Both the position numbers and the translations under genes were made by a program. Below, one piece after another: positions 2 to 24,668 of a stretch of DNA of 64,000 nucleotides. The stretch is from a virus (taxonomy: Duplodnaviria; Caudoviricetes): positions 29,036 through 93,035 of the IMG/VR virus record IMGVR_UViG_3300032269_000703; one strand, given 5' to 3'. Position 1 is the first letter of the stretch, and each line of letters begins with the position of its first letter. The notes under the pieces were generated by a model. The model did no database searches, had not been told where the DNA came from, and saw nothing but the letters and a program-made list of their open reading frames with translations.

Positions 2-226
2 AATAAGCCGTCTAAACTTTCAAGGCTGCATATACTCGTCCCAACTGGTAGCCGCGGGGTGAACCAAGGAGACATAGGATTTTTAGATCGTGAAGATGCT
101 GCACGAGAAGGAAGAGCTACTATGCCAGATGGTTTTAGACTAACAACTAGGAACCTACCTGCTAAATATCTGTTTACGACTGGCGATCTTAGCAGATGGA
201 CTTGGAACCCAGGAAAGACTGAATAA
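2..226 (+). CDS. C-terminal part of a degenerate ADP-ribosyltransferase-fold-like phage protein (5' truncated by window edge)
   Basis: Frame 2 open from window start: ...LHILVPTGSRGVNQGDIGFLDREDAAREG...RNLPAKYLFTTGDLSRWTWNPGKTE*. Resembles the phage ART-like pattern IYRAVP..INPGDWVT..VPAK.L.T.GD..EW.Y.P with catalytic positions altered; stop overlaps next ATG (TAATG). Confidence 0.45.
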   Translation, partial: NKPSKLSRLHILVPTGSRGVNQGDIGFLDREDAAREGRATMPDGFRLTTRNLPAKYLFTTGDLSRWTWNPGKTE

Positions 227-681
227 TGACTGAACAAGGATCCCAATTTACATGTCCACAATGTGGTACGCCGCAGTTTACTGCAGAGTTTGGTTTTGAA
301 CGCCATTATCATGAACCTAATGATGTAAAAGACCCATGTGTTTTTTGTGGTGAAAGTACTGCACCTGCTAAAGGAGCTAATTTAGGTAATTTAGACCTAG
401 GTGAACTTTTTAAAACAAATTCCTTAATAAATTCTAAGTTTGTAAATAGACTTCCGGGAACTTGGCAAGATCCAAATGACCCAAAGAAAACAATAGAAGG
501 TTATGCGTGTGCTGACTGTATGAGTTCTGATTGTAAAACATGTGGTAAGCCAGTTCGTTTAGATGAAGAAGTTGTAGATAAAAATGGAGAGTGGCACCAC
601 CATGGATGTTTAAACCCAAAAGACGCAGATGAATATTATCAAGACTGTGAATGCGATGATTGTGAAAAGTGGCGTAAATGA
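226..681 (+). CDS. Multi-Zn-finger hypothetical protein
   Basis: CPQC, CVFC, CADC, CKTC...HHHGC, CECDDC motifs; coupled start/stop. Confidence 0.75.
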   Translation: MTEQGSQFTCPQCGTPQFTAEFGFERHYHEPNDVKDPCVFCGESTAPAKGANLGNLDLGELFKTNSLINSKFVNRLPGTWQDPNDPKKTIEGYACADCMSSDCKTCGKPVRLDEEVVDKNGEWHHHGCLNPKDADEYYQDCECDDCEKWRK

Positions 682-1292
682 CAAGCTTAAGCCCAATGTT
701 TGATGATGATTATTTAAAGAATCCAGATGACTACGTAACACTCTACCGTGGTCGTGAGCACTATTGGAGCTGGGAGCTGCCTAAGACACAAGAAGACCTA
801 AAAGGTCTAGGAATGCATTGGACAACAGACCCACGTATTGCTGCTCATTTTGGTTCTGGTTGGAACGATATGGATAACGATGAGCCTAACTCTAAAGGAA
901 AAACAACAAGAACTGCTGGTGGTCACGTTGTTACAGCTAGAGTACACAAAAGCGGCATTATTGAGCGCGGAACTCCTGAATGGAATTCTTTTGCCAAACG
1001 TCACGCTATTGCAGGATTTGGAGATGAAGACCCTACAACTGAATCAAGTAATTTTGAAAAAGAAGTAACTATACGTCCAGGAACTCCACTTTATGTAACT
1101 AATGTTGTGCCTGTTAGAGAACTTGGATTAGAAGCTTCTCCTGCTTTAAGACAAGTAACTGGAGCAAAACGCAATACGCCTGTGTATGGTATTAAAGGTA
1201 AACTTAAAGGTAAAAAATGGGGACCAACATTAGTAGACAAGGCAGCTGTGGATAAAGGCGGATATGTCAAAAAAGGTAAGGGAACTGCATAA
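678..1292 (+). CDS. Putative ADP-ribosyltransferase (R-S/T-E type fold)
   Basis: VTLYRG (strand 1 Arg), HWTTDPRIAAHF (S/T-T-S-like motif), FEKEVTIRPG (ExE catalytic motif). Confidence 0.65.
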   Translation: MTSLSPMFDDDYLKNPDDYVTLYRGREHYWSWELPKTQEDLKGLGMHWTTDPRIAAHFGSGWNDMDNDEPNSKGKTTRTAGGHVVTARVHKSGIIERGTPEWNSFAKRHAIAGFGDEDPTTESSNFEKEVTIRPGTPLYVTNVVPVRELGLEASPALRQVTGAKRNTPVYGIKGKLKGKKWGPTLVDKAAVDKGGYVKKGKGTA

Positions 1293-1370
1293 TGCCAAAA
1301 TTAGGCGCAATTAGCAGCCGAAAACGATATTAGATAGATATAATAACCTTATTAAACAAAAGGATTGACT

Positions 1371-1592
1371 ATGAAGAATAAACCTGGAAATGGAAAGCAA
1401 GTACTTAAAACTGCTTTAACAGGAATGGGCACAGGTGCTATCATTGGAAGCACTATACACCCAGACAATCTTCTCTATGTAGCAGGTAGCTCTCTTCTTG
1501 GCGGTATGGCTGCTACTGGTGTTGCAGGTCTAAAAGGCGAAGGTAAGCGTAATAAGAGTTTCAATGAAGGCAAAGACAACTCTAGACGATAA
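1371..1592 (+). CDS. Small glycine-zipper membrane protein
   Basis: GMGTGAIIG / GSSLLGGMAATG hydrophobic Gly-rich helices; AAGGA SD before ATG 1371. Confidence 0.65.
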   Translation: MKNKPGNGKQVLKTALTGMGTGAIIGSTIHPDNLLYVAGSSLLGGMAATGVAGLKGEGKRNKSFNEGKDNSRR

Positions 1593-2116
1593 TGAGCCTA
1601 CACCACATTGAAGCATTAGCTACTTTAGCTAATATGCACTATATTGCTAGCCAAATACACGCGCGCACGCCTGTGAACGACGAAACAGGTAAAAGCATTG
1701 TTGATTACATGGATGATGCCACTAAGCACCTTAATCAGTCTCTACTTCATTCAAACACCGGTAATGCACAGAGTTCTTTATTTTCTTTAAGACAAACATA
1801 CCAGCACACACAGGGTGTTATGAATATGCTTTTGGAAGCAGGAGAGCACCAGATCAACGAAGCTGAAAACGGCAGAATGCTTGGAAGCGATCTTATTAAG
1901 AATATGACTGATATGAACGCATTTGTTGACCACCATGCCGCATTTTTAGACAAAGGCAAAGCGATTGTTGCTGATCAGCAAGAAAAAGGTTTAGCCCAAA
2001 AAGATTTACAAAACAACGCTAAAGATGTCATTGAGGGTATTGCAGATGACAACAACCTTTTTCTTCCAGGCAGCTGGGTAAACCGTGGCAATAACAAAGC
2101 CCCGAATGGAGAGTAA
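1592..2116 (+). CDS. Hypothetical helical His-rich protein (paralog of next gene)
   Basis: Coupled ORF; LATLANMHYIASQ matches LGHLANAHKIAVQ of 2116-2553. Confidence 0.7.
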   Translation: MSLHHIEALATLANMHYIASQIHARTPVNDETGKSIVDYMDDATKHLNQSLLHSNTGNAQSSLFSLRQTYQHTQGVMNMLLEAGEHQINEAENGRMLGSDLIKNMTDMNAFVDHHAAFLDKGKAIVADQQEKGLAQKDLQNNAKDVIEGIADDNNLFLPGSWVNRGNNKAPNGE

Positions 2117-2553
2117 TGTCACACAGTGATAATCCTTATGGCTGGGAGTCTAATGATGACTATAGCCAGCCACAGAATATAGAGCCTGTATATCAGCAAC
2201 TTTTGGGTCATCTAGCTAATGCACATAAAATTGCTGTTCAATATCCTAAATGGAGATCGCTTGGTAGACATATTCCTCGTATTGAAGCAGCTAGAGAACT
2301 TGTTAAAGAAGCGGCTATACACTCCGCATCTTTTTTGACAGGTAGAGCCGTAGGATCTTTACATGAAGCTATGGATGCAGTAACCCCTGTAATTAGCGAT
2401 TCTTATAAAGATACAATGCCTCATGACTATGACGGTGCTGTAGATCCTAGAGACCCTGCTATTAAATTCCATAATCACATGTCTGATTTCTTTTTTAAAG
2501 CACACAAAGAAACTGGTGGTTCATTACCTGGAGAAGAAGGTTGGGATAACTAA
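2116..2553 (+). CDS. Hypothetical helical His-rich protein
   Basis: Coupled ORF (TAATG both ends); similar to previous ORF. Confidence 0.7.
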   Translation: MSHSDNPYGWESNDDYSQPQNIEPVYQQLLGHLANAHKIAVQYPKWRSLGRHIPRIEAARELVKEAAIHSASFLTGRAVGSLHEAMDAVTPVISDSYKDTMPHDYDGAVDPRDPAIKFHNHMSDFFFKAHKETGGSLPGEEGWDN

Positions 2554-3266
2554 TGGCTTTTAAACCTATTAAGATTTGGGCTGGTAGAAACAGCGTTCCT
2601 ATGAGAGAAGATCTAGAAGCTTCTAATAGTGATGCCGTAGAAGCTATACGTTCCGATATTAAACAAAAGTATGGCGAAACATCTCTAAATTGGGGTTTAA
2701 AGATTCCTGAAGCTGATGCAGAGTTTCGTGCTCGTTATAATGAGCTTCCAAGTACTTATGACGCCGCTAACTTTAAACTGTTTCATAATTCTGAGCACAA
2801 GTTTGAGCCTGGTGATATTGTAAAGCCAACTATGTCAATATACCATGCTGCTGGTGAACAAGGTATGGATGATGAAGAACGCAAAGGTATGAGCAAAAAA
2901 TACCATGCTTGGGCTGCAGCAACTCCTGATTACCAAAAAACACGTGGTAGATACACTTATGAGGTAGAGCCTATTACAAAACACAGTTGGGTTCAAGAAG
3001 ATCCAGTAGGTTTTGAAAATGGCGAATTTGCTGCTCCAGAGGGTTACAGGGTCAAACAAGTAGTTTGGGATAAAGAAAAAGATTCTTGCCCTACTTGTGA
3101 AGGTAATGGAGTGCATCTTAGGGTATACCAAAACGCGTATCCATATCATCCAGAATGCACTGATTGTTTTGGAACAGGGTTGTCTACATCAAAAATTGTT
3201 GGATTACAAAAAGCCGGTCATAAGCTAGATGAAATAAAAGCATTTAAAGCTCCGATAGATTATTAA
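2553..3266 (+). CDS. Arr-like (rifampin ADP-ribosyltransferase fold) protein with C-terminal DnaJ-type Zn finger
   Basis: LFHNS..FEPGDIVKP, YTYEVEP..QEDP, GYRVKQVV parallel Arr motifs FYHGT..PGD, IYxVEP..EDDP, PLRVVGEV; CPTCEGNG...CTDCFGTG. Confidence 0.6.
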   Translation: MAFKPIKIWAGRNSVPMREDLEASNSDAVEAIRSDIKQKYGETSLNWGLKIPEADAEFRARYNELPSTYDAANFKLFHNSEHKFEPGDIVKPTMSIYHAAGEQGMDDEERKGMSKKYHAWAAATPDYQKTRGRYTYEVEPITKHSWVQEDPVGFENGEFAAPEGYRVKQVVWDKEKDSCPTCEGNGVHLRVYQNAYPYHPECTDCFGTGLSTSKIVGLQKAGHKLDEIKAFKAPIDY

Positions 3267-3269
3267 ATT

Positions 3270-3569
3270 ATGGGTAAAAGAAAAAAGCCAGTACAAAGTG
3301 AAGCAGCTGAATTAGCTGAACTACAAGAAGCTGCTAGCCAAGAGCACAATAGAAGATGTTCAGATATCTTTAATGAGTACCCTGAAGATGAACACGATAC
3401 TCTTCGCAATGATTTAATGGATCAAGCTGCTCATGATATTAATGAAGAATTTATTAAGCAGTATCCTGTATGGGCTAAAGCTTATGGACCTAAACCTCCT
3501 AAATCAATACAGTTTAAAAAAATCCAAGGAAATATTGGATTAGATATTGGAGCTAAAAAGTATGACTAA
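3270..3569 (+). CDS. Hypothetical protein
   Basis: ORF in dense operon. Confidence 0.65.
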   Translation: MGKRKKPVQSEAAELAELQEAASQEHNRRCSDIFNEYPEDEHDTLRNDLMDQAAHDINEEFIKQYPVWAKAYGPKPPKSIQFKKIQGNIGLDIGAKKYD

Positions 3570-3912
3570 TCCAGAAGAATTTGATTTTAGTCATATTAAT
3601 GAGACTAACGCTCCTAGAACAATGGGAGAGCTACACGAATTAACTGAAGGTAGACCTCTTAGTAGAGCACAATGGAATAACATTATGGAGTTAGGTCTTA
3701 AACGCACCGCTAATGAAGAAGCAAATCCACCTAAGCCTGTTCCTGAAGGAATGGCTAATCCTAATCTAGGTGATCTAGAGTCTGAAGTTGGTGCTCAAAA
3801 AGTTGGCTGCAATAACTGTGGCGAACTAATGTCTCGTGATCAGCATAAAGAAGAAGGCGGATTATGCTTTGATTGCTGGAAAACTCAACAGGAAGAGGAT
3901 AGACATGAGTAA
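3562..3912 (+). CDS. Hypothetical protein with C-terminal Zn finger
   Basis: CNNC...CFDC; ATG 3562 overlaps previous gene end. Confidence 0.65.
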   Translation: MTNPEEFDFSHINETNAPRTMGELHELTEGRPLSRAQWNNIMELGLKRTANEEANPPKPVPEGMANPNLGDLESEVGAQKVGCNNCGELMSRDQHKEEGGLCFDCWKTQQEEDRHE

Positions 3913-4210
3913 ATCACCTGCATGGCAAAGAGCAGAAGGAAAGAACCCTAAAGGCGGTCTTAATGCCAAGGGTAGAGCTTCTGCTAAAAAAGAGGGGCAT
4001 AACCTCAAAGCACCTGTAAAAAAGGGCGACAATCCTCGTAGAGCCTCTTTCTTGGCTAGAATGGCTGGCAACCCAGGTCCAGAGCGTAAACCCAATGGTG
4101 AGCCTACTAGACTGCTTTTAAGCCTAGAAGCATGGGGTGCCTCATCTAAAGCTGACGCTAGACAAAAAGCTGCTGCTATTCGTAAGCGTAATGAAGGAAA
4201 GAAGAAGTAA
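3905..4210 (+). CDS. Small basic phage protein (AWQRxEGKNPKGGLNAKGRAS family)
   Basis: GAGG SD before ATG 3905; motif recalled from aquatic phages; Lys/Arg-rich. Confidence 0.8.
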   Translation: MSKSPAWQRAEGKNPKGGLNAKGRASAKKEGHNLKAPVKKGDNPRRASFLARMAGNPGPERKPNGEPTRLLLSLEAWGASSKADARQKAAAIRKRNEGKKK

Positions 4211-4371
4211 TGGCTACTAAAAAAGTTTGGGAAAAACCAGATCCTACTAAAAAAGACAAGCCTCTAAGCAAAAAGCAAAAATCATCGGCTAAAGCTCGTG
4301 CCAAAGCTGCTGGTCGTCCATACCCTAACCTAGTAGATAACATGGCGGCTTCTAGAAAGAAAAAGAAGTAA
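4210..4371 (+). CDS. Small basic phage protein (AKARAKAAGRPYPNLVDNM family), 53 aa
   Basis: Not in ORF track; MATKKVWEKPDPTKKDKPLSKKQKSSAKARAKAAGRPYPNLVDNMAASRKKKK; TAATG coupling at both ends. Confidence 0.8.
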   Translation: MATKKVWEKPDPTKKDKPLSKKQKSSAKARAKAAGRPYPNLVDNMAASRKKKK

Positions 4372-4727
4372 TGGATGAACAAAATCTAAACGATCAGCAG
4401 TTTGGTCCTTGGAAAATGACTCCTACCATGAAGGCTGTTCATGAGTATATGAAAACTAGACATGTTGGTGTAGAAAACAGAGGCGGTATGTGGGACATTG
4501 CAGCAGCTACTGTTACAAACCATAAAAAACAGTATTTAACTAATGCTAAACATGAAGCCCACTTTGAGGCATTAAATCGTCTAATTGATAATGGAATTGT
4601 AAAAAAGAACTCTGGAGACTACCATAATGGAGATGATATCGATACTGCGTGGATTCCTGTAGAAGGTGAAAAAACTGTAAAAGAACTGTACATGGAAGAA
4701 CTTGAACATAAATTTGGCAGTCAGTAA
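4371..4727 (+). CDS. Hypothetical protein, possibly winged-helix
   Basis: WDIAAA...EALNRLIDNGIVKK pattern; N-terminal NLNDQQF motif. Confidence 0.6.
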   Translation: MDEQNLNDQQFGPWKMTPTMKAVHEYMKTRHVGVENRGGMWDIAAATVTNHKKQYLTNAKHEAHFEALNRLIDNGIVKKNSGDYHNGDDIDTAWIPVEGEKTVKELYMEELEHKFGSQ

Positions 4728-5137
4728 TGGGTAGAAATACTGCAGCATTTCAAGGTGGTCAAGGACTATCTATTGTTCATGATAAAGGACAAAAAGTATC
4801 TTTACACAAAGTTGGAGAAGGTGAGGTATCTAGTATAGATTACCATTTACCAGAACCAAATAGGGTATACATTTCTATGATGAATACTCCATGGGAGTAT
4901 GAAGGTAATGGGTATTCTTCTTACCTAGTAAACCATCTGTATAACTATTACCCAAACCACACAATAGATTTTGGCGATATTGTCCACCCAGCGGCAGAAC
5001 ACATTATGGAAAAGATGATGTCACAACATGGCAGAACAGTATACAGCACTTCGTCTAAAGACTGGACTTGCAAAGAGTGCGGAGAAGAAAATTTTTCTAG
5101 AGATATGTTACGTGAGCATGAAGAAGAGAATCACTAA
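4727..5137 (+). CDS. GNAT-like acetyltransferase with C-terminal C2H2 Zn finger
   Basis: ISMMNTPWEYEGNGYSSYLV (motif A variant); CKEC-x12-HEEENH. Confidence 0.65.
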   Translation: MGRNTAAFQGGQGLSIVHDKGQKVSLHKVGEGEVSSIDYHLPEPNRVYISMMNTPWEYEGNGYSSYLVNHLYNYYPNHTIDFGDIVHPAAEHIMEKMMSQHGRTVYSTSSKDWTCKECGEENFSRDMLREHEEENH

Positions 5138-5496
5138 TGGGTAGAAATAATGCAGACTTCCATGGTTACACTCTAGAGTTTGAGCACGCTGATACTTCTC
5201 CTGTAGAAGACTGTGATCACCACAGAGTAGATGCTTTTGATAAAGATGATGAGCATGTAGGCAGTTTAATATGGTTCACGCATGACGCGGGCGCGCGTAC
5301 CCCAGGCGCAATAGACGTAGATGTAGACCCTGAACACCAGCGTAAAGGTATAGCTACTGCTATGTACAAGTTTGCTTTACAAAAAGCTGCTGAACATAAC
5401 ATTATTAAGCCAGATCTACTTAGGTCTTCGTATGGACCTGAAGGGTATAGATGGGCTAGATCTTTAGGATTACCTAAGAAGTTTGGTGAAAGATAG
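5137..5496 (+). CDS. GNAT acetyltransferase
   Basis: VDVDPEHQRKGIATAMY (Q/RxxGxA acetyl-CoA motif). Confidence 0.8.
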   Translation: MGRNNADFHGYTLEFEHADTSPVEDCDHHRVDAFDKDDEHVGSLIWFTHDAGARTPGAIDVDVDPEHQRKGIATAMYKFALQKAAEHNIIKPDLLRSSYGPEGYRWARSLGLPKKFGER

Positions 5497-5505
5497 CATA
5501 ATCTG

Positions 5506-5514
5506 TGCTATAAT
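5506..5514 (+). promoter_or_regulatory. Extended -10 promoter (TGcTATAAT) for hsp20
   Basis: Exact TGnTATAAT in intergenic gap about 7 nt before a 5' hairpin. Confidence 0.65.
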
Positions 5515-5521
5515 CTATGTA

Positions 5522-5610
5522 GGCACGCCAATTGGGTGCCATAAACAATAGTCTGCCTTATGGGGACTTTGCCGTATGGCAGACGCTTATCTACGTCTAA
5601 GGAGTAGAAA
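5522..5610 (+). promoter_or_regulatory. Structured 5' leader of hsp20 (possible RNA thermometer or switch)
   Basis: GGCAC/GTGCC hairpin; GTCTGCC/GGCAGAC long hairpin; alternative AGACG/CGTCT versus TCTAC/GTAGA stems around the AAGGAG SD. Confidence 0.55.
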
Positions 5611-6132
5611 ATGCACATTAACGTACCAGATCCATGGGATAAACACAAAAACCCATATATTAACCCACATGATCCGTGGGATAAGAAAAAAGAGTGGGAA
5701 AAACCTGCTCCACCAAAGATTATTACAATTAATGATCTATTTCCTCGTTTAGACCGCCTTTCTATTGGTTGGTCTCCACTTCTTGATCAACTCAAGGAGA
5801 TTACTAACAACAAGCCAAGTTACCCTCCATATGACATTGTTCAGATGGATGAAGAGACAAACCTACTCAACGTAGCTGTTGCTGGGTTTACTAAGAAGGA
5901 AGTTACTGTTACTGTAAAAGATTCAGCAATTACCATCGAAGGTAAGCAGAAAGAAAAGCAACGTGGCGAAGTTGTTTACCAGGGCATTGCTACACGGGAC
6001 TTTAAGTTGTCGCTAGCAATTGCTGAATACTGGGAAGTTACTAATGCTCTAATGGAAAACGGTATGTTGACTATTCAATTCAACAAGATCCTTCCTGAAG
6101 AGCTGAAGCCAAAGGTAATTGACATTAACTAG
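5611..6132 (+). CDS. Small heat-shock protein Hsp20/IbpA family
   Basis: SYPPYDIV, VAVAGF, YQGIATRDF, A.MENGMLTI motifs; AAGGAG SD. Confidence 0.93.
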   Translation: MHINVPDPWDKHKNPYINPHDPWDKKKEWEKPAPPKIITINDLFPRLDRLSIGWSPLLDQLKEITNNKPSYPPYDIVQMDEETNLLNVAVAGFTKKEVTVTVKDSAITIEGKQKEKQRGEVVYQGIATRDFKLSLAIAEYWEVTNALMENGMLTIQFNKILPEELKPKVIDIN

Positions 6133-6147
6133 TTTTTAATGTAGACT
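6119..6147 (+). promoter_or_regulatory. Sigma70/SigA-type promoter for the ncRNA cassette
   Basis: TTGACA (6119-6124) - 17 nt - TAGACT (6142-6147); predicted start about 6154. Confidence 0.75.
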
Positions 6148-6154
6148 AGGTATA

Positions 6155-6184
6155 CCACCTGAGCACGTGGACGTAAAACTGCTC
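6155..6184 (+). ncRNA. H-type pseudoknot at 5' end of ncRNA cassette
   Basis: S1 CCAC 6155-58/GTGG 6167-70; S2 GAGCA 6161-65/TGCTC 6180-84; A-rich loop ACGTAAAAC. Confidence 0.6.
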
Positions 6185-6187
6185 TTA

Positions 6188-6267
6188 GGGCTAGAAATGG
6201 TGTCGATTGCAGAACAAAGCCGCATGTCGGAGTCTGTAAGACCGCAGTTCAATTCTGCGCTGGTCCA
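6188..6267 (+). ncRNA. ssrA: Minimal tmRNA: tRNA-like domain only, no mRNA-like domain
   Basis: Acceptor GGGCTAG/CTGGTCC with G3:U pair and discriminator A; stemless D-loop ending GTCGA; P2 TTGCAGA/TCTGTAA; GAC linker; T-arm CGCAG-TTCAATT-CTGCG; CCA not encoded. Confidence 0.8.
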
Positions 6268-6272
6268 CGCTT

Positions 6273-6324
6273 GTAGACAAAGGAGCGTTTTAGCGGTCTA
6301 CCCGTCCTAGGCAACGGAATCTCC
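6273..6324 (+). ncRNA. Nested pseudoknot-like RNA between the two tRNA-like elements
   Basis: GTAGAC/GTCTAC, GGAG/CTCC, CGT/GCG, CCGT/ACGG pairings. Confidence 0.4.
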
Positions 6325-6326
6325 AA

Positions 6327-6397
6327 GGACTGGCGTAGCCATGGGCTACGAGTCGATTCGGTAGGTAGTAGTCGGTAGTGCAAATCTACACAGTCCA
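6327..6397 (+). ncRNA. Non-canonical tRNA-like cloverleaf
   Basis: Acceptor GGACTG/CAGTCC+A; CGTAGCC/GGCTACG stem; CGATT/AGTCG stem with 11-nt loop; T-arm GTAG-TGCAAAT-CTAC. Confidence 0.55.
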
Positions 6398-6413
6398 CGC
6401 ATGGAAGGAAAAT

Positions 6414-6587
6414 ATGCCAACGTATCAATACACGTGTAAAGAGTGTGACTCTACAATTAGTCACCTCATACCTATTAATGAACCATTAATAACTCCTAAA
6501 TGCCTGTCCTGTCAACAGGAAATGGAAAGGATATTTGCCGTTCCTAGTATTACATTTCGTGGTGGTGGTTGGGGCAGTAGCCGTTGA
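6414..6587 (+). CDS. FmdB-family zinc-ribbon protein
   Basis: MPTYQYTCKEC...CLSC..MERIF..P.ITFRGGGW; GGAAGG SD. Confidence 0.88.
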   Translation: MPTYQYTCKECDSTISHLIPINEPLITPKCLSCQQEMERIFAVPSITFRGGGWGSSR

Positions 6588-7027
6588 AGACATGCACTTT
6601 ATGCGGTATTGAGAAATCTTACGATCAATACACTAAAAAAAGCCGTAATAGGGATGGGTACATGGCTATGTGCCGTGAATGCTCTCTACCTAGGCGTCGT
6701 AAACAATATGAAGAAAATCCGGACTATCAAAGGAACGCAGTGAAGGTTCGTAAAGAAAATAATCGTGATCGCATAACACAGTACAAGATAGATAACCCTT
6801 GTGCTGATTGTGGTAAATTTTATCCTTCTTATGTGATGGATCTAGATCACGTACGTGGAGATAAGTTTAAAGGAGTATCTCAGCTAGTTTCACATAGCTG
6901 GGACGTAATAGAAACAGAAATTGCTAAGTGTGACTTAGTATGCGCTAATTGCCATCGTGAACGTACTTTTAAACGTTTAGGCACAACACAACTCGACTAC
7001 TACCATGAGGACTACCAACTTGATTAA
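6584..7027 (+). CDS. HNH endonuclease
   Basis: N-terminal CTLC/CREC; PCADCG..MDLDH..KCDLVCANCHRERT. Confidence 0.85.
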   Translation: MKTCTLCGIEKSYDQYTKKSRNRDGYMAMCRECSLPRRRKQYEENPDYQRNAVKVRKENNRDRITQYKIDNPCADCGKFYPSYVMDLDHVRGDKFKGVSQLVSHSWDVIETEIAKCDLVCANCHRERTFKRLGTTQLDYYHEDYQLD

Positions 7028-7541
7028 GAACCCTATTGAAGTAACCCTAACTGAAGAAGAAGTAGCTGAAGGACTAGACTTTGTCCGTAAAGTACGTGAG
7101 AACAAAGAAAAGCATGGCGTACGTGACATGATGTTTGATCTTAAAAACACTTCTGAAGGAATCAACATTATTGGTCATTTAGGAGAAGTAGCTGCTTCTA
7201 ACTACCTTGGATTAAAAGTAAACCGTGATATTTACGTACATGGCGATGGTGGGCTAGATTTAGAGCTAGATGGCACCACAATCCAGGTAAAAACAAGTAA
7301 ACTACCTAAGATGATATTTAACCATCATCTAGGGTTTTCTACTGATATCGCAGTACTAGCCCAGTATATTGGTGAAGATAACCGTCATGCTGAAAAAGAT
7401 CCTAGGTTCCTTATTTGGGGTTGGATCAATAAAGAGCAGTTTATGGAAAAGTACTACCCTTATGATTTTGGCTACGGAACACGTCTTGTAGTTGAGTCTA
7501 TTCAATTAAACCCTATGGATAAGTTGGTCAAAGTAAAATGA
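7005..7541 (+). CDS. PD-(D/E)XK-like nuclease fold protein
   Basis: GHLGEVAA...GDGGLDL...IQVKT. Confidence 0.6.
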   Translation: MRTTNLIKNPIEVTLTEEEVAEGLDFVRKVRENKEKHGVRDMMFDLKNTSEGINIIGHLGEVAASNYLGLKVNRDIYVHGDGGLDLELDGTTIQVKTSKLPKMIFNHHLGFSTDIAVLAQYIGEDNRHAEKDPRFLIWGWINKEQFMEKYYPYDFGYGTRLVVESIQLNPMDKLVKVK

Positions 7542-7672
7542 TGTTTTTATGGTTAATACTGTCTGGAATAGGCATTACAAGTATTATTATTATAGGTTTG
7601 TTCTCTTTAATTATTTTTATTGAGGCACTTGCAAACCATTCTGATTTAGATTCGGATTTTTGGAAAGAGTAG
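7538..7672 (+). CDS. Single-pass membrane peptide (44 aa)
   Basis: MMFLWLILSGIGITSIIIIGLFSLIIFIEALANHSDLDSDFWKE; ATGA overlap. Confidence 0.6.
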   Translation: MMFLWLILSGIGITSIIIIGLFSLIIFIEALANHSDLDSDFWKE

Positions 7673-7674
7673 CT

Positions 7675-7860
7675 ATGGGTTACATTAATGAGCTTCGTAC
7701 TGGACTTGCTGGCGGTCGTGGCAATCTAAGCCTAAAAATCTCTACTCGCTATGATGGTCTTGGCATTAACGCGCAAAAGTTTGGCGGAAAGCAGTTTACT
7801 GTAGGTGAAACAAACTACGCTAGCAGTAACAAAGGAATTGCTAAACCAGGCAGCTTTTAA
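7675..7860 (+). CDS. Hypothetical Gly-rich peptide
   Basis: ATG 7675 just after previous stop; coupled to next. Confidence 0.6.
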   Translation: MGYINELRTGLAGGRGNLSLKISTRYDGLGINAQKFGGKQFTVGETNYASSNKGIAKPGSF

Positions 7861-7994
7861 TGCTTAGCACACAGTTTTCTAGAGCTACCGGCATGTATGG
7901 CGGTCCTAGAGGTACTTACGGTACTTATCTTGTAGGTCAAAATGTAGATCTAGCAAGTTTTAAAACCGATAGAGAAAGACAGTCAGGCGAATGA
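7860..7994 (+). CDS. Hypothetical 44-aa peptide starting MLSTQF
   Basis: Not in ORF track; TAATG and ATGA coupling. Confidence 0.6.
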   Translation: MLSTQFSRATGMYGGPRGTYGTYLVGQNVDLASFKTDRERQSGE

Positions 7995-8074
7995 TCCCAG
8001 AAGAAGAAGAATTTGATTTTGACTTTGTTATTTTTGATGAAGACGAAGAGGATGAGGATGAGGATGAACAATGA
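7991..8074 (+). CDS. 27-aa hyper-acidic peptide
   Basis: MIPEEEEFDFDFVIFDEDEEDEDEDEQ; ATGA overlaps at both ends. Confidence 0.55.
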   Translation: MIPEEEEFDFDFVIFDEDEEDEDEDEQ

Positions 8075-8325
8075 GTTCCTCTACTCTAGGTGTTCAATTT
8101 CAGGGCATTAGTGGTCTTTCTAATTACTGGACTAATATTCCATCTATGATTATGGGCATTAATGGCGGTGCTGCATTAAGCACTACAACTGGAGTTCCAC
8201 TTGGCACACCTTCTGAAGAAATTTTTGCTAAAGTAGGTGGAGGAGTTAAGAAAGCTGATGATGTCAGTGATCAACTACCAGCATCTACATCAGGTATGTT
8301 ACAGGGCGGCACAGCCGCTAGTTAG
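8071..8325 (+). CDS. Hypothetical Gly/Ser-rich protein
   Basis: Coupled ORF; N-terminal LGVQF. Confidence 0.65.
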   Translation: MSSSTLGVQFQGISGLSNYWTNIPSMIMGINGGAALSTTTGVPLGTPSEEIFAKVGGGVKKADDVSDQLPASTSGMLQGGTAAS

Positions 8326-8333
8326 GAAACACT

Positions 8334-8528
8334 ATGTTTGCAGCGTTACTTCCACTAGTTGCACGAGTTGGTGCAGGACTTGGTGCTAGAGCAGCAGTAG
8401 GTATGGGTGCCGCTGAAGGCGGTATTGGTGCTCGTGTTGGAGCAAACCTAGGTGAACGAGCCGCAGTATCTGCTGCTAGACACCTTAGCGGTCAATTTAA
8501 CAATGAACGCAATAATCAATATAATTAA
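8334..8528 (+). CDS. Gly/Ala-rich small protein
   Basis: AGGA SD; ARVGAGLG repeat-like; C-terminal HLSGQF. Confidence 0.65.
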   Translation: MFAALLPLVARVGAGLGARAAVGMGAAEGGIGARVGANLGERAAVSAARHLSGQFNNERNNQYN

Positions 8529-8589
8529 TTTTTATAATTCCGCACTTATCTAGACCACAATATGTACCCTTTTTTAGATAAGGTAAATA

Positions 8590-8856
8590 ATGAAACTTTT
8601 TGGAAATGTCCTTCTTAGAATTTTGGCGACATTCGTTGCGTCCGCTCTTGGCGTTATTGGTGCTGGGTCCCTTGGCGGTGTTGCTCCTGCTACTGCCGCC
8701 TTTGTTGGTGGTATCCTGGCTGTTGCAAAAGTTATAGAACGCCTATCTCTTGCCTTCCTAGAAGATGGCAAGTTGTCTAATGCTGAGATTAACGCAGCGT
8801 TCCAGCAGTCTGTTCAACTAAAGAATGTCAAAGAACCAAAGGCTCCTAAGAACTAA
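8590..8856 (+). CDS. Holin-like membrane protein
   Basis: Two hydrophobic helices then DGKLSNAEINAAF; near endolysin. Confidence 0.55.
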   Translation: MKLFGNVLLRILATFVASALGVIGAGSLGGVAPATAAFVGGILAVAKVIERLSLAFLEDGKLSNAEINAAFQQSVQLKNVKEPKAPKN

Positions 8857-10406
8857 TGAGATTGTTGCGTAAACTCGCAACGCTACTCGTCACACTACCT
8901 CTTGCTCTTACACCTTTACTACTTCCAGCAATAGCGTCTGCAGACACAGTATCCGGATTGAATGTCGAAGTTTATACTTATGACCCCTCAAGCACGCCTG
9001 ACCGTAAACCTTATCAACTTTGTGAAGGTGCTTGGACTCACGCTGACAACATTGACTCTGATTTTGATGCTTTAGGTTCTGTTGCGGGATGTAGACCTGA
9101 TTGGGTTTTAGTCCATTACACAGGCTTTGTAACTTTTCCAAAGTCTGGTACTTTTGCGTTTATGGCTCCTGCTGATGATGGGTTCTGGCTATCTCTTGAT
9201 GGAACTTCAATCATTACTAATGACTGGGTTCTTAAAGGTCGATGGGGGCAAGTTTATCCTGACGTGCAGATTGAGGGCGGGCATACTTACGCTCTAGATG
9301 CTTGGTTCTACGAGTATGGTGGCGGTGCTAGTGCTACTTTAATGTACTCTCCTGATAATGGAAATAACTGGAATGTTGTACCTTCTGAATACTATACAAC
9401 TGATGGTTCTGCACCGGTAATTGTTGCCCCGCCTTCTTTGAGCCAGCCAGTTGGTTTGAACGGCACTGCTGATGGAACTAACGTTGATCTAGTTTGGGGA
9501 GCAGTAGTCGAAGACACTCCTATTGAGCATTATGCAGTTATGTGGACTTATGCTGGAGCAGATGGCTGGGGCATAAGCGCTGCTGACCAAAGCATTACTA
9601 TTGGCGGTTTGCCGGAAGATACAGACGTGACATTCTGGGTCCGTTCTGATAATGACACACTTCACGTTTACTCCCAGTATTCTGACCCAATTATTGTACA
9701 TACTGGCTTTGACCCAATAGTTATTCCTGTACCACAGCCTACAGAGCCACCTGTTGTAGTACCTCCTGTAATTCCAGAGCCGCCAGTTGACCCTAAGCCA
9801 CCAGTTATTCCAGACCCACCTGTAGTGCCTGATCCTCCTATAGTTGTGCCTCCAGTTATTCCTGATCCACCAGTGGTTGTTCCGCCTGTGGTAGTCCCAG
9901 AACCTCCAGTTGTAGTGCCAGACCCACCAGTTGTTCCAGAGCCTAAGCCAGAACCACAGCCAAAGCCACAAGGTTCTCCAGAGATTCCTGCCGTTATTGA
10001 AAACCTAATGCAGGTAGACCTACAGGCAGTAGACCCAACTGAACTTACTCCAGAACAAGCTACCCAACTTGTAGAAGCGGCTTTGGTGGTATTTGAAACA
10101 GCCACAGAAGGCTCTCCAGAATACCAGCAAGCGTTGGACGCGCTTTACTTGGCAGCCGAGCAAGATGACATTGTGGTTGACCCAGGCATTGCTAATATTC
10201 CTGGTGTTGGTCAAGCCGCTGTTGCTATTGCTAATGTATTGAATGCCATTGGTAACGTAGGTGCGGACATCTCACCTAAAGCCCGTAAAAAGGCTCAGAC
10301 GCTTGTTGTAACCACTCTTGTTGTTGGGCAAATTGCTCAGACAGCAGCCCTAGCTACCGCATCTTCAGGCGGTTCATCTAACCGAACACTTAGGAGAAAA
10401 CAATGA
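8856..10406 (+). CDS. Exported PA14 + FN3 + Pro-rich protein with C-terminal hydrophobic segment
   Basis: Signal peptide (ASA-D); PA14 ADDGFWL..WFYEYGGGA; FN3 PVGL..VDLVW..VRSDN; PPVVVP repeats. Confidence 0.8.
   Translation: MRLLRKLATLLVTLPLALTPLLLPAIASADTVSGLNVEVYTYDPSSTPDRKPYQLCEGAWTHADNIDSDFDALGSVAGCRPDWVLVHYTGFVTFPKSGTFAFMAPADDGFWLSLDGTSIITNDWVLKGRWGQVYPDVQIEGGHTYALDAWFYEYGGGASATLMYSPDNGNNWNVVPSEYYTTDGSAPVIVAPPSLSQPVGLNGTADGTNVDLVWGAVVEDTPIEHYAVMWTYAGADGWGISAADQSITIGGLPEDTDVTFWVRSDNDTLHVYSQYSDPIIVHTGFDPIVIPVPQPTEPPVVVPPVIPEPPVDPKPPVIPDPPVVPDPPIVVPPVIPDPPVVVPPVVVPEPPVVVPDPPVVPEPKPEPQPKPQGSPEIPAVIENLMQVDLQAVDPTELTPEQATQLVEAALVVFETATEGSPEYQQALDALYLAAEQDDIVVDPGIANIPGVGQAAVAIANVLNAIGNVGADISPKARKKAQTLVVTTLVVGQIAQTAALATASSGGSSNRTLRRKQ
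9721..9970 (+). repeat. Coding degenerate tandem repeats (P[DE]PPVV(V)P)
   Basis: About a dozen Pro/Val units with synonymous variation. Confidence 0.85.
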
Positions 10407-10591
10407 AGAAAGTAAAGAAATTCCTAGTAGCCTTACTTAGAGACCTACTTGACCAGGCTTGGACCCTTTTAGGTCTTGCTCTTGGTTGGGTTCTGCTTGA
10501 AGGATCTGCTAGAGATATTGTAGGTAAGTTGATTGGTGTTACCCTACTTATTTGGATTCTTACGTTTCCACTGCGTAATCGTGACGAATAG
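10403..10591 (+). CDS. Small two-TM membrane protein
   Basis: AWTLLGLALGWVLL, LIGVTLLIWILTF; AGGAG SD. Confidence 0.75.
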   Translation: MKKVKKFLVALLRDLLDQAWTLLGLALGWVLLEGSARDIVGKLIGVTLLIWILTFPLRNRDE

Positions 10592-10625
10592 TAGATAATA
10601 GTAATATCAACCCGAAAGGACAATA

Positions 10626-11084
10626 ATGTCTGAAATTGTATACCATGAACCATTTGATAAAAAGCTTAGAGGCGATGAGCTTGGTAATCTAGCTCCATAC
10701 CGTAATGGTCGACCACACCGTGGACAAGACTGGCACCCAAAGGAAAAGTCACCAATTCACGCTATTTGTGATGGAACTGTTGGTCTAGTTGCTTGGACTG
10801 ATGTTTTAGGACACATTATTGTTCACTCTTCAAAAGATGCTAAGCACTGGGTTCTTTACGCTCACCTTGCTGAAAAACCTACCCTTAAAAAAGGCGACAA
10901 GGTTGAAGGTGGAAAGACTGTTCTAGGACTAGTTGGTGGCGGTAAGAACACACCATCAGGGTCTGCATCTACTGGTGCTCACCTACACATGACCGTTGCT
11001 ACTATGGGCAAAGACTTCTCAGGTGTAGAAGCACACATGCTTCCATTTGAGCGTCTAGTTGACCCACTAACTCTATTTAAGTAA
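10626..11084 (+). CDS. M23 family peptidase, probable endolysin
   Basis: HRGQD, YAHL, STGAHLH motifs. Confidence 0.88.
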   Translation: MSEIVYHEPFDKKLRGDELGNLAPYRNGRPHRGQDWHPKEKSPIHAICDGTVGLVAWTDVLGHIIVHSSKDAKHWVLYAHLAEKPTLKKGDKVEGGKTVLGLVGGGKNTPSGSASTGAHLHMTVATMGKDFSGVEAHMLPFERLVDPLTLFK

Positions 11085-11273
11085 ATGATACAGAGAAAAG
11101 CCCTAACTGTTAATAACGGTGCTGCTCTTAAGCGCACTAAGCTATTTAACCAGTCTAGGGCTTTATCTGTACCTAAGCAACAAAAACAAGAGACATCTGT
11201 GTTCGTACACGCGCGCGCAGGAAGACAAAACTCAGAGGGTTTTGGTGGCGGAAATAGAGTAGGAAAAAGGTAG
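11085..11273 (+). CDS. Small basic hypothetical protein
   Basis: ORF fills gap; GRQNSEGF near C-terminus. Confidence 0.55.
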   Translation: MIQRKALTVNNGAALKRTKLFNQSRALSVPKQQKQETSVFVHARAGRQNSEGFGGGNRVGKR

Positions 11274-11278
11274 TATAC

Positions 11279-11623
11279 ATGGATCAAGTTGTACTATATT
11301 GGGCTGCTGGTATAATTACAGTAGGAACTGCACTTAGTATGTTAGCTGTGGCTCTAAAACGCCTCTACAAGCGCGTACAGGGCTTTATGGAGAATTGGGA
11401 TCAATTTCACAGAGATTGGTCTGGAGAGCCTGCAATGCCCGGTAGAAGTGCTGTACCTGGTGTTATGGAGCGACTCAACCGGATTGATGGGGAATTAAAG
11501 CGTAATGGTGGTTCTTCTATGAAAGATGCAATAAATAGAGTTGAAAAGAAATTAGAGCAAATCGATGCTAGACTTGATCAAGGTAACCAACGATTTGACG
11601 AAATCGAAATGAGAATTAAATGA
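11279..11623 (+). CDS. Membrane protein with coiled coil (actinophage lysis-module type)
   Basis: N-terminal TM; GVMERL..ELKRNGGSSMKDAINR. Confidence 0.75.
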   Translation: MDQVVLYWAAGIITVGTALSMLAVALKRLYKRVQGFMENWDQFHRDWSGEPAMPGRSAVPGVMERLNRIDGELKRNGGSSMKDAINRVEKKLEQIDARLDQGNQRFDEIEMRIK

Positions 11624-12129
11624 CTATTATGCCAAATAAAAAAGGCGGTAGAGTACCACAGCCGGGTGTAAATAACCCTATTGGTAGTGCAGGTGACTTT
11701 AAAATTGCTGTAAATAGCGGTGCTACTGGTTCTATTTTAGGTGCACTAGGTACTAGACTAAATGCACGAGGAATGAGCTGGAATGCTGCTCGTGCTGCAT
11801 TAGAGGTTGCTAAAGTTGAAGCTCAAAGAGATATGACTGTAAGATCTATGGAGCTACAGGCAGCAGCTGAGGCTCAGCAAAGAAAACATGAAGCAGACAT
11901 TAAAACTACTCGTATGAACAATACACACGAGCTTAAAAAGATTACTCTTACAGCAGAACAAGCGCGTCTAAACCAGCTACAGTCTACAAATAATGTTCAT
12001 GGTGTTCTAGACAGACTAAGAGATGACTTCCCTGGTGCCAACCTTGAGTTTGAAACTGAACGTGGTGAAAGGGTTAACATAACTCGTCCAAAGGGGGCGT
12101 CCTCTGAAGATTCAGAGGATGGGAGTTAA
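11620..12129 (+). CDS. Hypothetical coiled-coil protein
   Basis: ATGA coupling; helical A/E/Q-rich core. Confidence 0.7.
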   Translation: MTIMPNKKGGRVPQPGVNNPIGSAGDFKIAVNSGATGSILGALGTRLNARGMSWNAARAALEVAKVEAQRDMTVRSMELQAAAEAQQRKHEADIKTTRMNNTHELKKITLTAEQARLNQLQSTNNVHGVLDRLRDDFPGANLEFETERGERVNITRPKGASSEDSEDGS

Positions 12130-13066
12130 ACCTAAATCTAGTAGAAATGCTGCGTTTAGTCAGGGTTCTGGTGGTGGAAGAACTACACGCGTAGTTGAAG
12201 CACCAAGTTATGATGAGCCTGAAGAAGATGCTGATGAGTATGAAGATGAAGATGAACATGAAGATGAACAAGAGTCATCAACACCTCAAACATCAACACC
12301 TACTGTAACTACTACACCTGCTACTACAGCTATCCCTACTTCTACTCGTACTGCAACACCTGTGTCTTCTGTAGAAAAGTCTGAGAAAGAAGCAAAGGAA
12401 GCTAAAGATCGAGATGACAGAGTAGCTCAATCTATTATTGAAAATGAACCAGATAAACTAGACTTCTTTAAAAATAGAATTGGAAGTTCTTGTAAATCTT
12501 GTGGAGAAAAAATCCAAAGTTTACATGACAGTTATAGAAAACATGATATTGAGTCTAATGGTCTTTGTAGCCATGCTTTTGATGCAATTGAAGCGTGGGA
12601 TGGTAGTGACGTCTCTTCTATTACTAAAAAAACACTAGGCATTTCTTTTGATAAAAATAGTGGTGGCAATGAACAAAACGTGAGTGCTGATGACCCTACT
12701 ACATGGACGCCTGAAATGAAAAAGGCTCACAAAGCCCATTACGAAGAGTTTGCACCACATTTTAAAGATTTAGATACAGAAAGAAACATTACTCATGGGT
12801 TTGCACCTAAAGACATAGAGAATTGGTCTTCTGCTGAAACTAAATGGGGGCAAGCTGAATTTAAAGGGGCTCCTCCTGGTGCTGATAAACTAAGGTATGC
12901 TAATACAGAAAAAGAAGTAAAGTATTCTTTAAATAGAGTTGGCAAACCATGCTCCTTCTGTGGAGAGGACATTCCTTCAGTAGAAGAGTTGGATGAACAT
13001 CTAATAAATAAAAATGGTTGGTGTGGCACCGCAAGCTCAGCTATGAGATTTGCAAGTGATAATTAG
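12119..13066 (+). CDS. Hypothetical protein with acidic/Thr-rich N-terminus and duplicated CxxC-H-C Zn module
   Basis: NRIGSSCKSCGE..H..NGLC and NRVGKPCSFCGE..H..NGWC. Confidence 0.75.
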   Translation: MGVKPKSSRNAAFSQGSGGGRTTRVVEAPSYDEPEEDADEYEDEDEHEDEQESSTPQTSTPTVTTTPATTAIPTSTRTATPVSSVEKSEKEAKEAKDRDDRVAQSIIENEPDKLDFFKNRIGSSCKSCGEKIQSLHDSYRKHDIESNGLCSHAFDAIEAWDGSDVSSITKKTLGISFDKNSGGNEQNVSADDPTTWTPEMKKAHKAHYEEFAPHFKDLDTERNITHGFAPKDIENWSSAETKWGQAEFKGAPPGADKLRYANTEKEVKYSLNRVGKPCSFCGEDIPSVEELDEHLINKNGWCGTASSAMRFASDN

Positions 13067-17722: not shown

Positions 17723-17882
17723 GCTAGTAACTTGGGTAGAAACTCACCTTTACATTATTGGTAAAGAGACCACTGCTTGGTTAAAAACAAAAGAAGCCTT
17801 TTTTTTAGAAGACGCTGAATCAGCAGCTGAGGTGTTAGTTGTTATCATGAAAGAGCTAAAAAAGAGGTCAAATGAGCTTTGA
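17646..17882 (+). CDS. Hypothetical helical protein upstream of terminase
   Basis: Overlaps terL start. Confidence 0.65.
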   Translation: MKIFKKDGPQQPTKLEKRVASISTPELVTWVETHLYIIGKETTAWLKTKEAFFLEDAESAAEVLVVIMKELKKRSNEL

Positions 17883-22955: not shown

Positions 22956-24086
22956 ATGGCAGGTTCTGCTATTACAGGTTCGTCCCAGCTCGCTGGTGCA
23001 CCTACCGCTTATTCAGGCTCAAACTCACAGTTGAGCCAATCTATCCAAACCATTTGGTCGAAGGAAATCCTATTCCAGGCTATGCCAATTCTACGCTTTG
23101 AGCAGTTCGCTGTTAAGAAGACTGAACTAGGTGTTGCTCCTGGTCTACGTGTTAACTTCCTACGTTACAAGAACTTCGCAGTGGACCCAACTCCACTATC
23201 AGAAGGTGTACGTATGACCACCAACGCTCTAACCGCAGAGCAGATTGCTATCACCGTTGCCGAGCACGGATACGCAGTTGCAGTCTCAGAGCTGTTGCTA
23301 AACGCATCTTTCGACGACATCATGGCTTCTGCTTCACGTTTGCTTGGTCGCCACATGGCTCAGTACCTAGACGTACAGGCTCGTAACACTCTATCAGCAG
23401 CTACTTCAGCTGTTTATGGTTACGACCGTTCAGGTTTCTCATCTTCAACTACTTTCAACACATATGCTGAAGGTACCGTTGGAACTAAGCTATCTGATCT
23501 AACTGGTAACTTCAAGCTAACAACCGGTGCTATCAAGGACGCTGCGCTAACTCTTGCGTCTAAGAACATCCCAAGGCTTGGAGAGACCTACGTACAGTTC
23601 ATTCACCCTAAGCAGTCTCGTGACCTTCGCTCAAACCCAGAGTTTATCGAAGTAACCAAGTACGCTGCTCCAGGTAACTTCATGCTAGGTGAAATCGGTC
23701 GTCTATACGACGTCGTATTCATCGAGACCACCCAGATTAAGCTTCTTGCTTCTGGTACTGCAGTTGACTACACTTCACTTGTTGGCGCACCTGCTGACCA
23801 GGTTGTAGTTCCTGTAAAGGCTAACACTAACCCAGGTTCTGGTGGTAACCCTAACGGTTCTACTTCACCAAACCCTGCTGGTGGTGCAGATGGTACTCCA
23901 GGTGCTTCTGTTTACGAATCAGTAATGATTGGTGACAATGCATTTGGTCACGCTATCTCTCTTCCAGTTGAGCTTCGTGATGGTGGTGTTCTAGACTTCG
24001 GTCGTGAGCACGCACTAGCATGGTACGCTATCTGGGGTCTAGGTGTTATTACTGACCAGGCTATCGTTAAGGTTTACACCAACTAA
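22956..24086 (+). CDS. Major capsid protein (N4 gp56-like HK97 fold)
   Basis: TIWSKEIL, PLSEG, YVQFIHP, GEIGRLYDVVFIET, DFGR..AWY; highly biased codons. Confidence 0.93.
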   Translation: MAGSAITGSSQLAGAPTAYSGSNSQLSQSIQTIWSKEILFQAMPILRFEQFAVKKTELGVAPGLRVNFLRYKNFAVDPTPLSEGVRMTTNALTAEQIAITVAEHGYAVAVSELLLNASFDDIMASASRLLGRHMAQYLDVQARNTLSAATSAVYGYDRSGFSSSTTFNTYAEGTVGTKLSDLTGNFKLTTGAIKDAALTLASKNIPRLGETYVQFIHPKQSRDLRSNPEFIEVTKYAAPGNFMLGEIGRLYDVVFIETTQIKLLASGTAVDYTSLVGAPADQVVVPVKANTNPGSGGNPNGSTSPNPAGGADGTPGASVYESVMIGDNAFGHAISLPVELRDGGVLDFGREHALAWYAIWGLGVITDQAIVKVYTN

Positions 24087-24110
24087 TAGCCAAACCCTCT
24101 CGTGAGGTAC

Positions 24111-24139
24111 GGGGGGCTGGTTCGCCAGCCCCCCACTTT
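24111..24139 (+). terminator. Hairpin after capsid gene
   Basis: GGGGGGCTGG-TTCG-CCAGCCCCCC then ACTTT. Confidence 0.7.
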
Positions 24140-24171
24140 AAATAAACAAACAAACATAGGAGAAAAATATC

Positions 24172-24543: not shown

Positions 24544-24559
24544 GCACGTCTAATAAGCT

Positions 24560-24605: not shown

Positions 24606-24668
24606 ATGTTTGGGCAGATTTTATTACCAAAATGCGAGAACATAAGTATATAGACTTACGGAGGATCT

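Follow-up and report, generated by a model that had tools for sequence, protein, structure and literature searches.

We analysed a window of 64,000 nucleotides, bases 29036-93035 of the complete 93,035-bp genome with direct terminal repeats of a tailed phage (Caudoviricetes; IMG/VR record IMGVR_UViG_3300032269_000703). A set of small proteins of this phage and its relatives, mostly enzymes predicted to modify the host and including an acetyltransferase of the GNAT family and a family modelled as ADP-ribosyltransferases (ARTs), was found to begin with one of two short peptide tags of 8-10 residues. We are confident that these tags are real, that they are selected as peptides and portable between folds, and that their two classes are interchangeable. 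As for what the tags do, loading of their carriers into the phage head is our first, tentative choice. All genes in the window lie on the + strand; they are named below by their start, with w for positions in the window and g (or "genome") for positions in the whole genome.

Class 1, with more data, has the consensus (D/E)-(N/H)-(L/I/V)-(G/S)-x(0-2)-Q-F, often followed by x-G-(I/V), and sets in 2-10 residues after the Met. Class 2 occupies residues 1-10 with the consensus M-(G/T/P)-(R/A)-N-N-(A)-D-F-(H/Q/N)-G. Such peptides had been picked out when the window was read from its letters alone (below, the sequence-only reading) and were taken for a candidate virion-packaging signal on unrelated proteins; all the peptides quoted then were found at the genes given for them. 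The strict class 1 pattern of that reading, L-[SGN]-x(1,2)-Q-F, occurs 7 times in the whole proteome compared with 1.06 in shuffles, and 5 of the matches fall within the first 12 residues. Two of these five (g27616 and g28383) lie in the 29 kb outside the window, which provides an out-of-sample test. N-termini of looser form in that outside part are MSDENIGKQFKGIAG, ..NIGKQF.., MDIPRQF, MGRTNGEFQNG (one start corrected) and MSFMSKNANFKHG.

The enrichment was then quantified across relatives. More than 598 related IMG/VR contigs were found via the terminase and 18 via the small heat-shock protein Hsp20, and open reading frames (ORFs) called in 98 related loci and the focal genome were clustered into 783 BLAST families. 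Within the first 15 residues, class 1 was present in 17 of the 783 families compared with 14 of 2265 internal family-windows (Fisher p 6e-4), and class 2 in 9 of 783 compared with 4 of 2265 (Fisher p 1e-3); scrambled control patterns were matched in 0-5 families. When the N-terminal 20 residues were shuffled, 14.0 families were observed for class 1 against 0.89 expected, and 6.8 against 0.31 for class 2. Without the focal genome, the same shuffles gave 9.7 against 0.85 and 5.2 against 0.22. The excess over composition-matched shuffles is ~15-fold, and chance or a bias in N-terminal composition is ruled out by the N-terminal shuffles together with the scrambled control motifs. After extra loci had been added, a strict tag was found in 38 of 773 families (24 with class 1, 17 with class 2 and 3 with both). 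A de novo motif run by expectation-maximisation on the N-termini of 306 family representatives ranked class-2-like seeds first, with SSRNAAFSQG of w12119 as the top seed; the run was over-fitted at convergence, and the seed ranking and top sites alone were used. An unbiased dipeptide scan alone put QF at rank 5 of 1077 (11 compared with 3.2), which is not significant after correction.

Several peptides of the sequence-only reading did not hold up as tags. Its C-terminal tags are not supported in general, since C-termini are not enriched (5 of 783 families, the background rate). The sole true C-terminal copy is ..HLSGQFN.. of w8334, which came top of 306 C-termini on the tag matrix (score 11.1, next best 3.5) and is kept in homologues, namely in L081 and L084. 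AGRNSVPM (w2553), KSIQF, GGKQF and PLSRAQW gained no support, GKRNKSFNEG of w1365 scored -1.0 on the tag matrix, and GRQNSEGFGG of w11085 proved to be a conserved C-terminal feature of its own family, without rank on the tag matrices. That the carriers are unrelated is true of the GNAT and ART folds, which are distinct, but not throughout: some carriers are paralogues, and many are diverged ART-like enzymes. Simple paralogy was nevertheless rejected as the source of the shared tags because self-BLAST links just two pairs, w226/g28383 and g26349/g26752.

The selection acts on the peptide. Codons vary at nearly all synonymous tag positions (Gly GGT/GGC/GGA/GGG, Arg AGA/AGG/CGC/CGT, Asn AAT/AAC, Gln CAA/CAG, Leu CTA/TTA/CTT), and the DNA 5' of tagged genes is unrelated, save for a frequent TAATG stop-start overlap. 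Synonymous variation and unconserved upstream DNA therefore indicate selection on the peptide, and on the same grounds a DNA or RNA signal at gene starts was discarded. The stop-start overlap, at which most class 2 genes begin with no obvious ribosome-binding site, would fit another explanation, namely that the first residues raise the yield of translationally coupled genes lacking a Shine-Dalgarno site. However, conservation reaches residues 8-10, class 1 stands at variable distances from the start, the codons vary, and most other coupled genes of the genome are without tags. We regard such a nascent-chain effect as highly improbable.

Comparison within families showed how independent the tags are of the domains behind them. 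In the GNAT family, pairwise identity is 84% in the tag columns compared with 37% in the rest and 66% in the best other 9-column window. The tags are better conserved than the catalytic motifs of the enzymes that carry them and therefore look like address labels. They are also exchanged: P0167 (class 2, MGRNNSDFHG) and P0196 (class 1, MSNLNPQQF) are GNATs with 71% identity over everything that follows the tag. In the ART family fam34, some members begin with MDIPRQF, ..DHLGPQF or ..ENVGQQF and others with MGRTNGEF, MTRNNADFQGG or MSRNEEFDYG; class swaps occur within fam45 and fam151 as well, and the GNAT of the complete relative G001 has ..PENIGQQF. A tree of the ART domain, itself ill-resolved, needs 12 changes of the class label at best estimate, compared with 21.8 in shuffles, and its well-supported branches force at least 2. 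Labels that are clustered yet switch imply that the tags are inherited but repeatedly replaced. The earlier idea of a modular tag is borne out in that the tags are modular, N-terminal, selected as peptides and common to different folds (a real GNAT by Pfam and an ART-fold family).

The clustering on the tree could also mean that the tag works in cis, as a strand, lid or auto-inhibitory segment of the enzyme itself that is inherited with the domain. In many carriers the tag indeed stands just 0-10 residues before the first strand with its conserved His, and the main point in favour comes from the GNAT model (the weaker one, pLDDT 74), which places a short strand, residues 5-8, alongside strand 1. 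Against this, the same decapeptide is found on two unrelated folds and on non-enzymes, the cassettes are swapped cleanly, and where a spacer of 20-35 residues is present the tag stays N-terminal, away from the domain. The tag is also missing from embedded copies of the domain and disordered in the better model, that of the ART. We give a function in cis little credence.

The ART assignment rests on modelling of the family of g26349 and g26752, whose predicted structure is a Tpt1/KptA-like ART fold. The AlphaFold2 model shows a small ART-like fold (pLDDT 88, pTM 0.80), and known ARTs (Tpt1/KptA, the Rhs ART toxins TreX/TreTu, pertussis S1 and PARPs) make up most of the Foldseek top 50, with weak matches throughout (E-values only 2e-3, TM-scores 0.4-0.5). 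In an alignment of 9 members, H20, R27, D70, R104, H107, H125, H127 and E130 are invariant; in an alignment of 90 sequences D70 alone is invariant, and H20 and R27 are conserved in at least 90%. The tag is disordered in the model, with pLDDT 51 for residues 1-10 and no secondary structure before residue 15.

A profile of this family was run against 1.84 billion protein representatives and matched 337 proteins. The 90 aligned stand-alone ARTs comprise 81 library representatives of up to 170 residues and 9 sequences from the phage and its relatives, and 67 of them (~75%; 35 class 2 and 32 class 1, scored by eye) are tagged. The domain also recurs in 53 proteins of 400-3700 residues, in up to 6 copies and together with NUDIX and GNAT domains; P0017, for instance, has NUDIX, GNAT and several ART-domain copies. 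P0017, P0018, P0023, P0040 and others are metagenomic giants of 900-3700 residues with up to 6 ART-like copies. Among 105 embedded ART-domain copies, none has a class 1 tag and a single one matches class 2, likely by chance, and 52 of 54 giant-protein N-termini are untagged. Each embedded copy is instead preceded by a junction, ..(W)K(L/T)A(R)TT / MYH.., which may be a processing or linker motif. The possibility that the tags are polyprotein cleavage junctions was rejected because embedded copies lack them and have this ..K(T/L)A..TT junction. Neither is there one tag per giant polypeptide, as judged from the giant N-termini.

A tag that is portable, selected, present once per stand-alone chain and absent when the domain is embedded points to an address read by a common partner. 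In the mechanism we propose, one tag copy would stand at the extreme N-terminus of each separately translated small carrier, above all ART-like and GNAT enzymes that stand alone, but also small proteins of the zinc-ribbon and Gly-rich kinds, and both classes would be read by the same partner. By analogy with known phages, this putative partner may be a procapsid component, such that the tags would load the enzymes into the head for co-injection, and the enzymes would enter the next cell with the phage DNA; we hold this view tentatively. The tagged array would then be a "split" counterpart of giant polyvalent proteins with the same domains in one chain. A shade more tentative is the complete proposal, in which a two-class N-terminal "ticket" code would load a changeable arsenal of separate ART and GNAT proteins into the virion with no proteolytic processing. 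Capsid loading is ranked first because the carriers are of enzyme types known or argued to be injected (T4 Alt, polyvalent proteins), and because N-terminal capsid targeting has precedents (PMC3012670, PMC9024508). Tags on the solo domains and none on the giants are also the expected pattern if each chain made separately has to bring a ticket of its own.

The nearest counterparts known are the capsid-targeting sequence (CTS) of T4 and the DarB signal of P1. The T4 CTS stands on the internal proteins IPI-III and Alt, which are loaded via the scaffolding core, and it is removed by the prohead protease. As in T4, a short N-terminal peptide is the only thing common to diverse small anti-host proteins that include an ADP-ribosyltransferase. 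By contrast, the focal phage has no detectable prohead protease while T4 cleaves its CTS, its head module has the SPP1-type gene order portal, scaffold, major capsid protein (MCP), and it uses two interchangeable classes; the tags are not known to resemble the CTS in sequence. T4 Alt is packaged and injected (PMC5512222). In P1, an N-terminal signal of <30 residues on DarB suffices to send a reporter into the head (PMC9024508), which resembles the tags in being an N-terminal signal on an anti-host protein. However, the Dar proteins share no consensus (PMC9024508), whereas the focal lineage has a near-invariant consensus common to dozens of families.

The link to injected "polyvalent" proteins was substantiated, as the same ART domain recurs in giants with NUDIX and GNAT. 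Polyvalent proteins have been argued, by inference, to be injected with the DNA, and solo versions were noted (Iyer et al. 2017, PMC5512222). Both have the same set of enzymes (ART, GNAT, NUDIX), and the focal ART domain recurs inside proteins of 900-3700 residues. In the focal phage, however, each domain has a gene and a tag to itself, and the giants are untagged, with ..K(T/L)A..TT junctions. The effector arsenals of type III, type IV and type VII secretion systems likewise have one short terminal signal common to many unrelated effectors. The focal tags differ from these in having, by inspection, no hydrophobic h-region, twin-arginine, WXG or YxxxD/E, and their carriers are phage-encoded cytoplasmic proteins. 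No Sec, Tat or prepilin signal peptide was recognised, as there is no hydrophobic core and the sequence past the tag is polar or the first enzyme strand.

We next consider the head module and the host. The Streptomyces myophages LuckySocke and BRock have an MCP ~60% identical to the focal one, and in the annotation of their records terminase, portal, scaffold and MCP follow each other in the same order. This likeness, together with a whiB gene, makes an actinobacterial host well supported, and sample names and a genome G+C of 40% suggest a freshwater low-GC lineage. The scaffold is the sole gene in the whole portal-MCP interval. Its C-terminal tail, ..LLG.AASNRGQGLFG(N), is strongly conserved and probably binds the coat; LuckySocke gp77 keeps ..SNRGLFG. 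Mimicry of this tail by the tags was ruled out, since the tail ranked 7 and 26 of 306 on the tag matrices with negative scores.

These ranks are one of several observations that weigh against capsid loading. Prohead protease families S78, S77 and ClpP were not detected in the complete genome (the S77 search was made without a positive control), and there is no conserved (acidic) cleavage site past the tag, so that the T4 route of cleavage after loading is inapplicable. LuckySocke, despite the same head module (60% MCP identity, scaffold tail), has no tagged annotated start, and in three near-complete close relatives, G002-G004, neither the fam34 ART domain nor a canonical class 2 tag is present. 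A lysis-like cassette (w7860, w8071, w8334) contains class 1 too, some carriers are non-enzymes, and in the weaker GNAT model the tag contributes a short strand. Finally, the tagged array stands at the start of a long rightward gene set; if it is expressed early, packaging would be unnecessary.

Almost as probable as capsid loading is a different kind of partner, namely a host hub or a phage chaperone to which the tags, as docking motifs, would bring effectors; taken by itself we would still call it rather unlikely. The hub could be RNA polymerase, the ribosome, a Clp unfoldase or the membrane, or the partner could be a holdase such as Hsp20, whose gene is adjacent. Hub docking is classically marked by terminal peptides that unrelated proteins have in common, as in the C-terminal tails that bind T4 gp45, and the tags fit this description. 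Their distribution fits too. In IMG/VR, real tagged gene starts were found only in contigs sharing genes with the focal phage, and the matches from two degenerate DNA scans across IMG/VR were about as many as chance would give. GenBank phages yielded no homologues of the tagged ART or GNAT, no cultured relative proved to carry the tags, and the searched literature yielded no description of these motifs. Tags confined in IMG/VR to a freshwater lineage and absent from Streptomyces-infecting relatives fit an adaptation to a host-specific or accessory partner. Docking would also accommodate class 1 on the membrane-anchored tail of w8334 and on a conserved small protein of the lysis-like cassette.

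Hsp20 is syntenic and co-occurs with the arrays. Tagged enzymes of relatives are encoded in arrays of 3-8 adjacent genes, most often immediately 5' of Hsp20, which adjoins tagged arrays in L081, L083, L084, L087, L089, L118 and L120; in every case where an array and Hsp20 were both observed, Hsp20 stood directly 3' of the array. Among the four near-complete relatives, Hsp20 is found in G001 only, as is the fam34 ART domain, with an array of 4 consecutive tagged genes; Hsp20 and the ART array are both in G000 and G001 and both absent from G002-G004 and LuckySocke. Nevertheless, this link may reflect the shared gain and loss of one accessory block, and L028 and L149 have tags without Hsp20 in the fetched stretch. 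Hsp20 is thus a candidate tag partner as a lead only. Docking is further weakened in that no known hub motif (clamp QL[SD]LF, small heat-shock protein IxI) matches by inspection, and in that one hub would have to accept two dissimilar classes as equivalents.

The tag could also serve as a degron or timer: enzymes that may be toxic would be marked for fast degradation by a protease of the host, which would limit their time window. The carriers are enzymes that could be harmful to phage functions at later stages, the ART model has a flexible tag, and class 2 has a fixed anchor at residues 2-3, its second residue being small and so permitting removal of the Met. But neither class resembles a known bacterial degron, class 1 stands at a variable distance from the N-terminus, and it would be rare for a degron to require 8-10 residues that hardly vary, or two alternative forms. 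A role of this kind is improbable.

The genes that bear on these results are listed in Table 1.

Table 1. Tagged genes, neighbouring genes and head-module genes; positions refer to the window except where "genome" is given.
Feature	Position	Strand	Remarks
Class 1 N-terminus	genome 27616		MELGRQF; outside window
Class 1 N-terminus	genome 28383		MYMTELGGQF; outside window
151-aa zinc-ribbon protein	226..681	+	Class-1-like N-terminus MTEQGSQF (nt 226-249)
204-aa protein	678..1292	+	N-terminus MTSLSPMF (variant class 1), then ..LYRG..
75-aa protein	1365..1592	+	C-terminal GKRNKSFNEG (nt 1542-1571), unsupported as tag; no homologues found
118-aa ORFan	4371..4727	+	Class 1 tag MDEQNLNDQQF (nt 4371-4403); no homologue in fetched loci
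136-aa diverged GNAT-like protein	4727..5137	+	Class 2 tag MGRNTAAFQG (nt 4727-4756)
119-aa GNAT acetyltransferase	5137..5496	+	Canonical class 2 tag MGRNNADFHG (nt 5137-5166)
Hsp20 small heat-shock protein	5611..6132	+	Pfam PF00011; directly downstream of tagged-enzyme array
44-aa protein	7860..7994	+	Class 1 tag MLSTQF
84-aa Gly-rich protein	8071..8325	+	Class 1 tag ..TLGVQFQG (nt 8071-8106)
64-aa protein, hydrophobic N-terminus	8334..8528	+	C-terminal class 1 copy ..HLSGQFN.. (nt 8481-8498)
62-aa protein	11085..11273	+	C-terminal GRQNSEGFGGG conserved across 13 homologues
315-aa protein	12119..13066	+	Class-2-like SSRNAAFSQG, residues 7-16 (nt 12137-12166)
Large terminase	17872..19452	+	
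Portal	20308..22038	+	
Scaffolding protein, 253 residues	22158..22919	+	Between portal and MCP; LuckySocke gp77 annotated scaffolding protein
Major capsid protein (MCP)	22956..24086	+	
whiB	63272..63502	+	WhiB family, E 1e-20

At the left end of the window, homologues of w226 in L081 and L084 retain MTEQGSQF, and its paralogue at genome 28383 has the class 1 N-terminus given in Table 1. The earlier labels of w678 as an ART and of w2553 as Arr-like were not confirmed by sequence. There is no Pfam match for w678, its PARP, Arr and Tox-ART matches in the ESM Atlas, at 0.83-0.85 only, are a weak lead, and PDB sequence searches with w678, w2553 and genome 27616 gave no match. A homologue of w678 in G001, with a common ..HWTTD.. 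segment, starts ..NEHLVGQQF..VYRG. Many other carriers have (F/Y)-H-G-(T/S) or Y-R-G directly past the tag and, judging by this motif, are probably further ART-like enzymes. The GNAT assignment of w5137 is firm (PF00583, E 5e-8, 33.5 bits compared with a gathering cut-off of 20.7; ..RRKGIAT.. motif A conserved). Its neighbour w4727 is 17% identical to the GNAT family with motif A in register, and no related loci were found with w4727 and P0095 as queries.

Relatives have a single ~105-aa Gly-rich gene (MSAPLSGQF...GGTAAY) beside a holin-like gene, which is split here: w7860 resembles its N-terminal and w8071 its C-terminal part, and both are tagged. At 7860-8325, w7860, an acidic 27-aa ORF and w8071 replace this one gene of relatives. 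The lysis-like cassette at 8590-11623 encodes a holin-like protein with two transmembrane segments, a 516-aa secreted PA14/proline-rich protein with a C-terminal anchor, a small transmembrane protein, an M23 peptidase, the 62-aa protein with the GRQNSEGFGGG tail, and a protein with a transmembrane segment and a coiled coil. Further on, a 307-aa protein of a related locus (L001_1858), presumed to be the orthologue of w12119 from its corresponding position without a BLAST link, has RRRNDAFNTG.

Several features of the structural region were recorded in passing. The terminase has a conserved N-terminus, ..(D/E)KFEEI(N/T)PEFY, and a conserved C-terminus, ..SSNPFF, and a PNPxFPE-like N-terminal motif is common to the w19544 family (19544-19939) and w25964 (25964-26389). 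Two strong GC-rich hairpin terminators follow the MCP gene (24087-24171) and the next gene (24544-24668). A run of very basic small proteins (48-80 aa) with K/R-rich tails lies at 31460-33672, between tail-fibre-like and tail sheath genes.

To our knowledge, T4 and, in part, P1 are the only phages for which the choice of proteins borne in the virion is understood. If they do act in packaging, the tags would be a new, processing-free and two-class variant with an unusually explicit consensus. Such a code would be readable: injected effectors would become predictable from metagenomes, and unknown ORFs of the anti-host arsenal could be told by their tag. A 10-residue handle for loading cargo into actinophage capsids would be gained as well. 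Should the ticket code be true, gaining a 10-residue cassette would be enough to make a new effector injectable. If they do not serve packaging, the tags nonetheless single out a linked arsenal of uncultured phages that are abundant; even with a host hub or chaperone as the partner, they would mark a functionally linked set of ~15 of the ~140 genes per genome, a set that otherwise consists of ORFans. Synthetic tag peptides would provide a direct biochemical entry into the phages of the most abundant freshwater bacteria.

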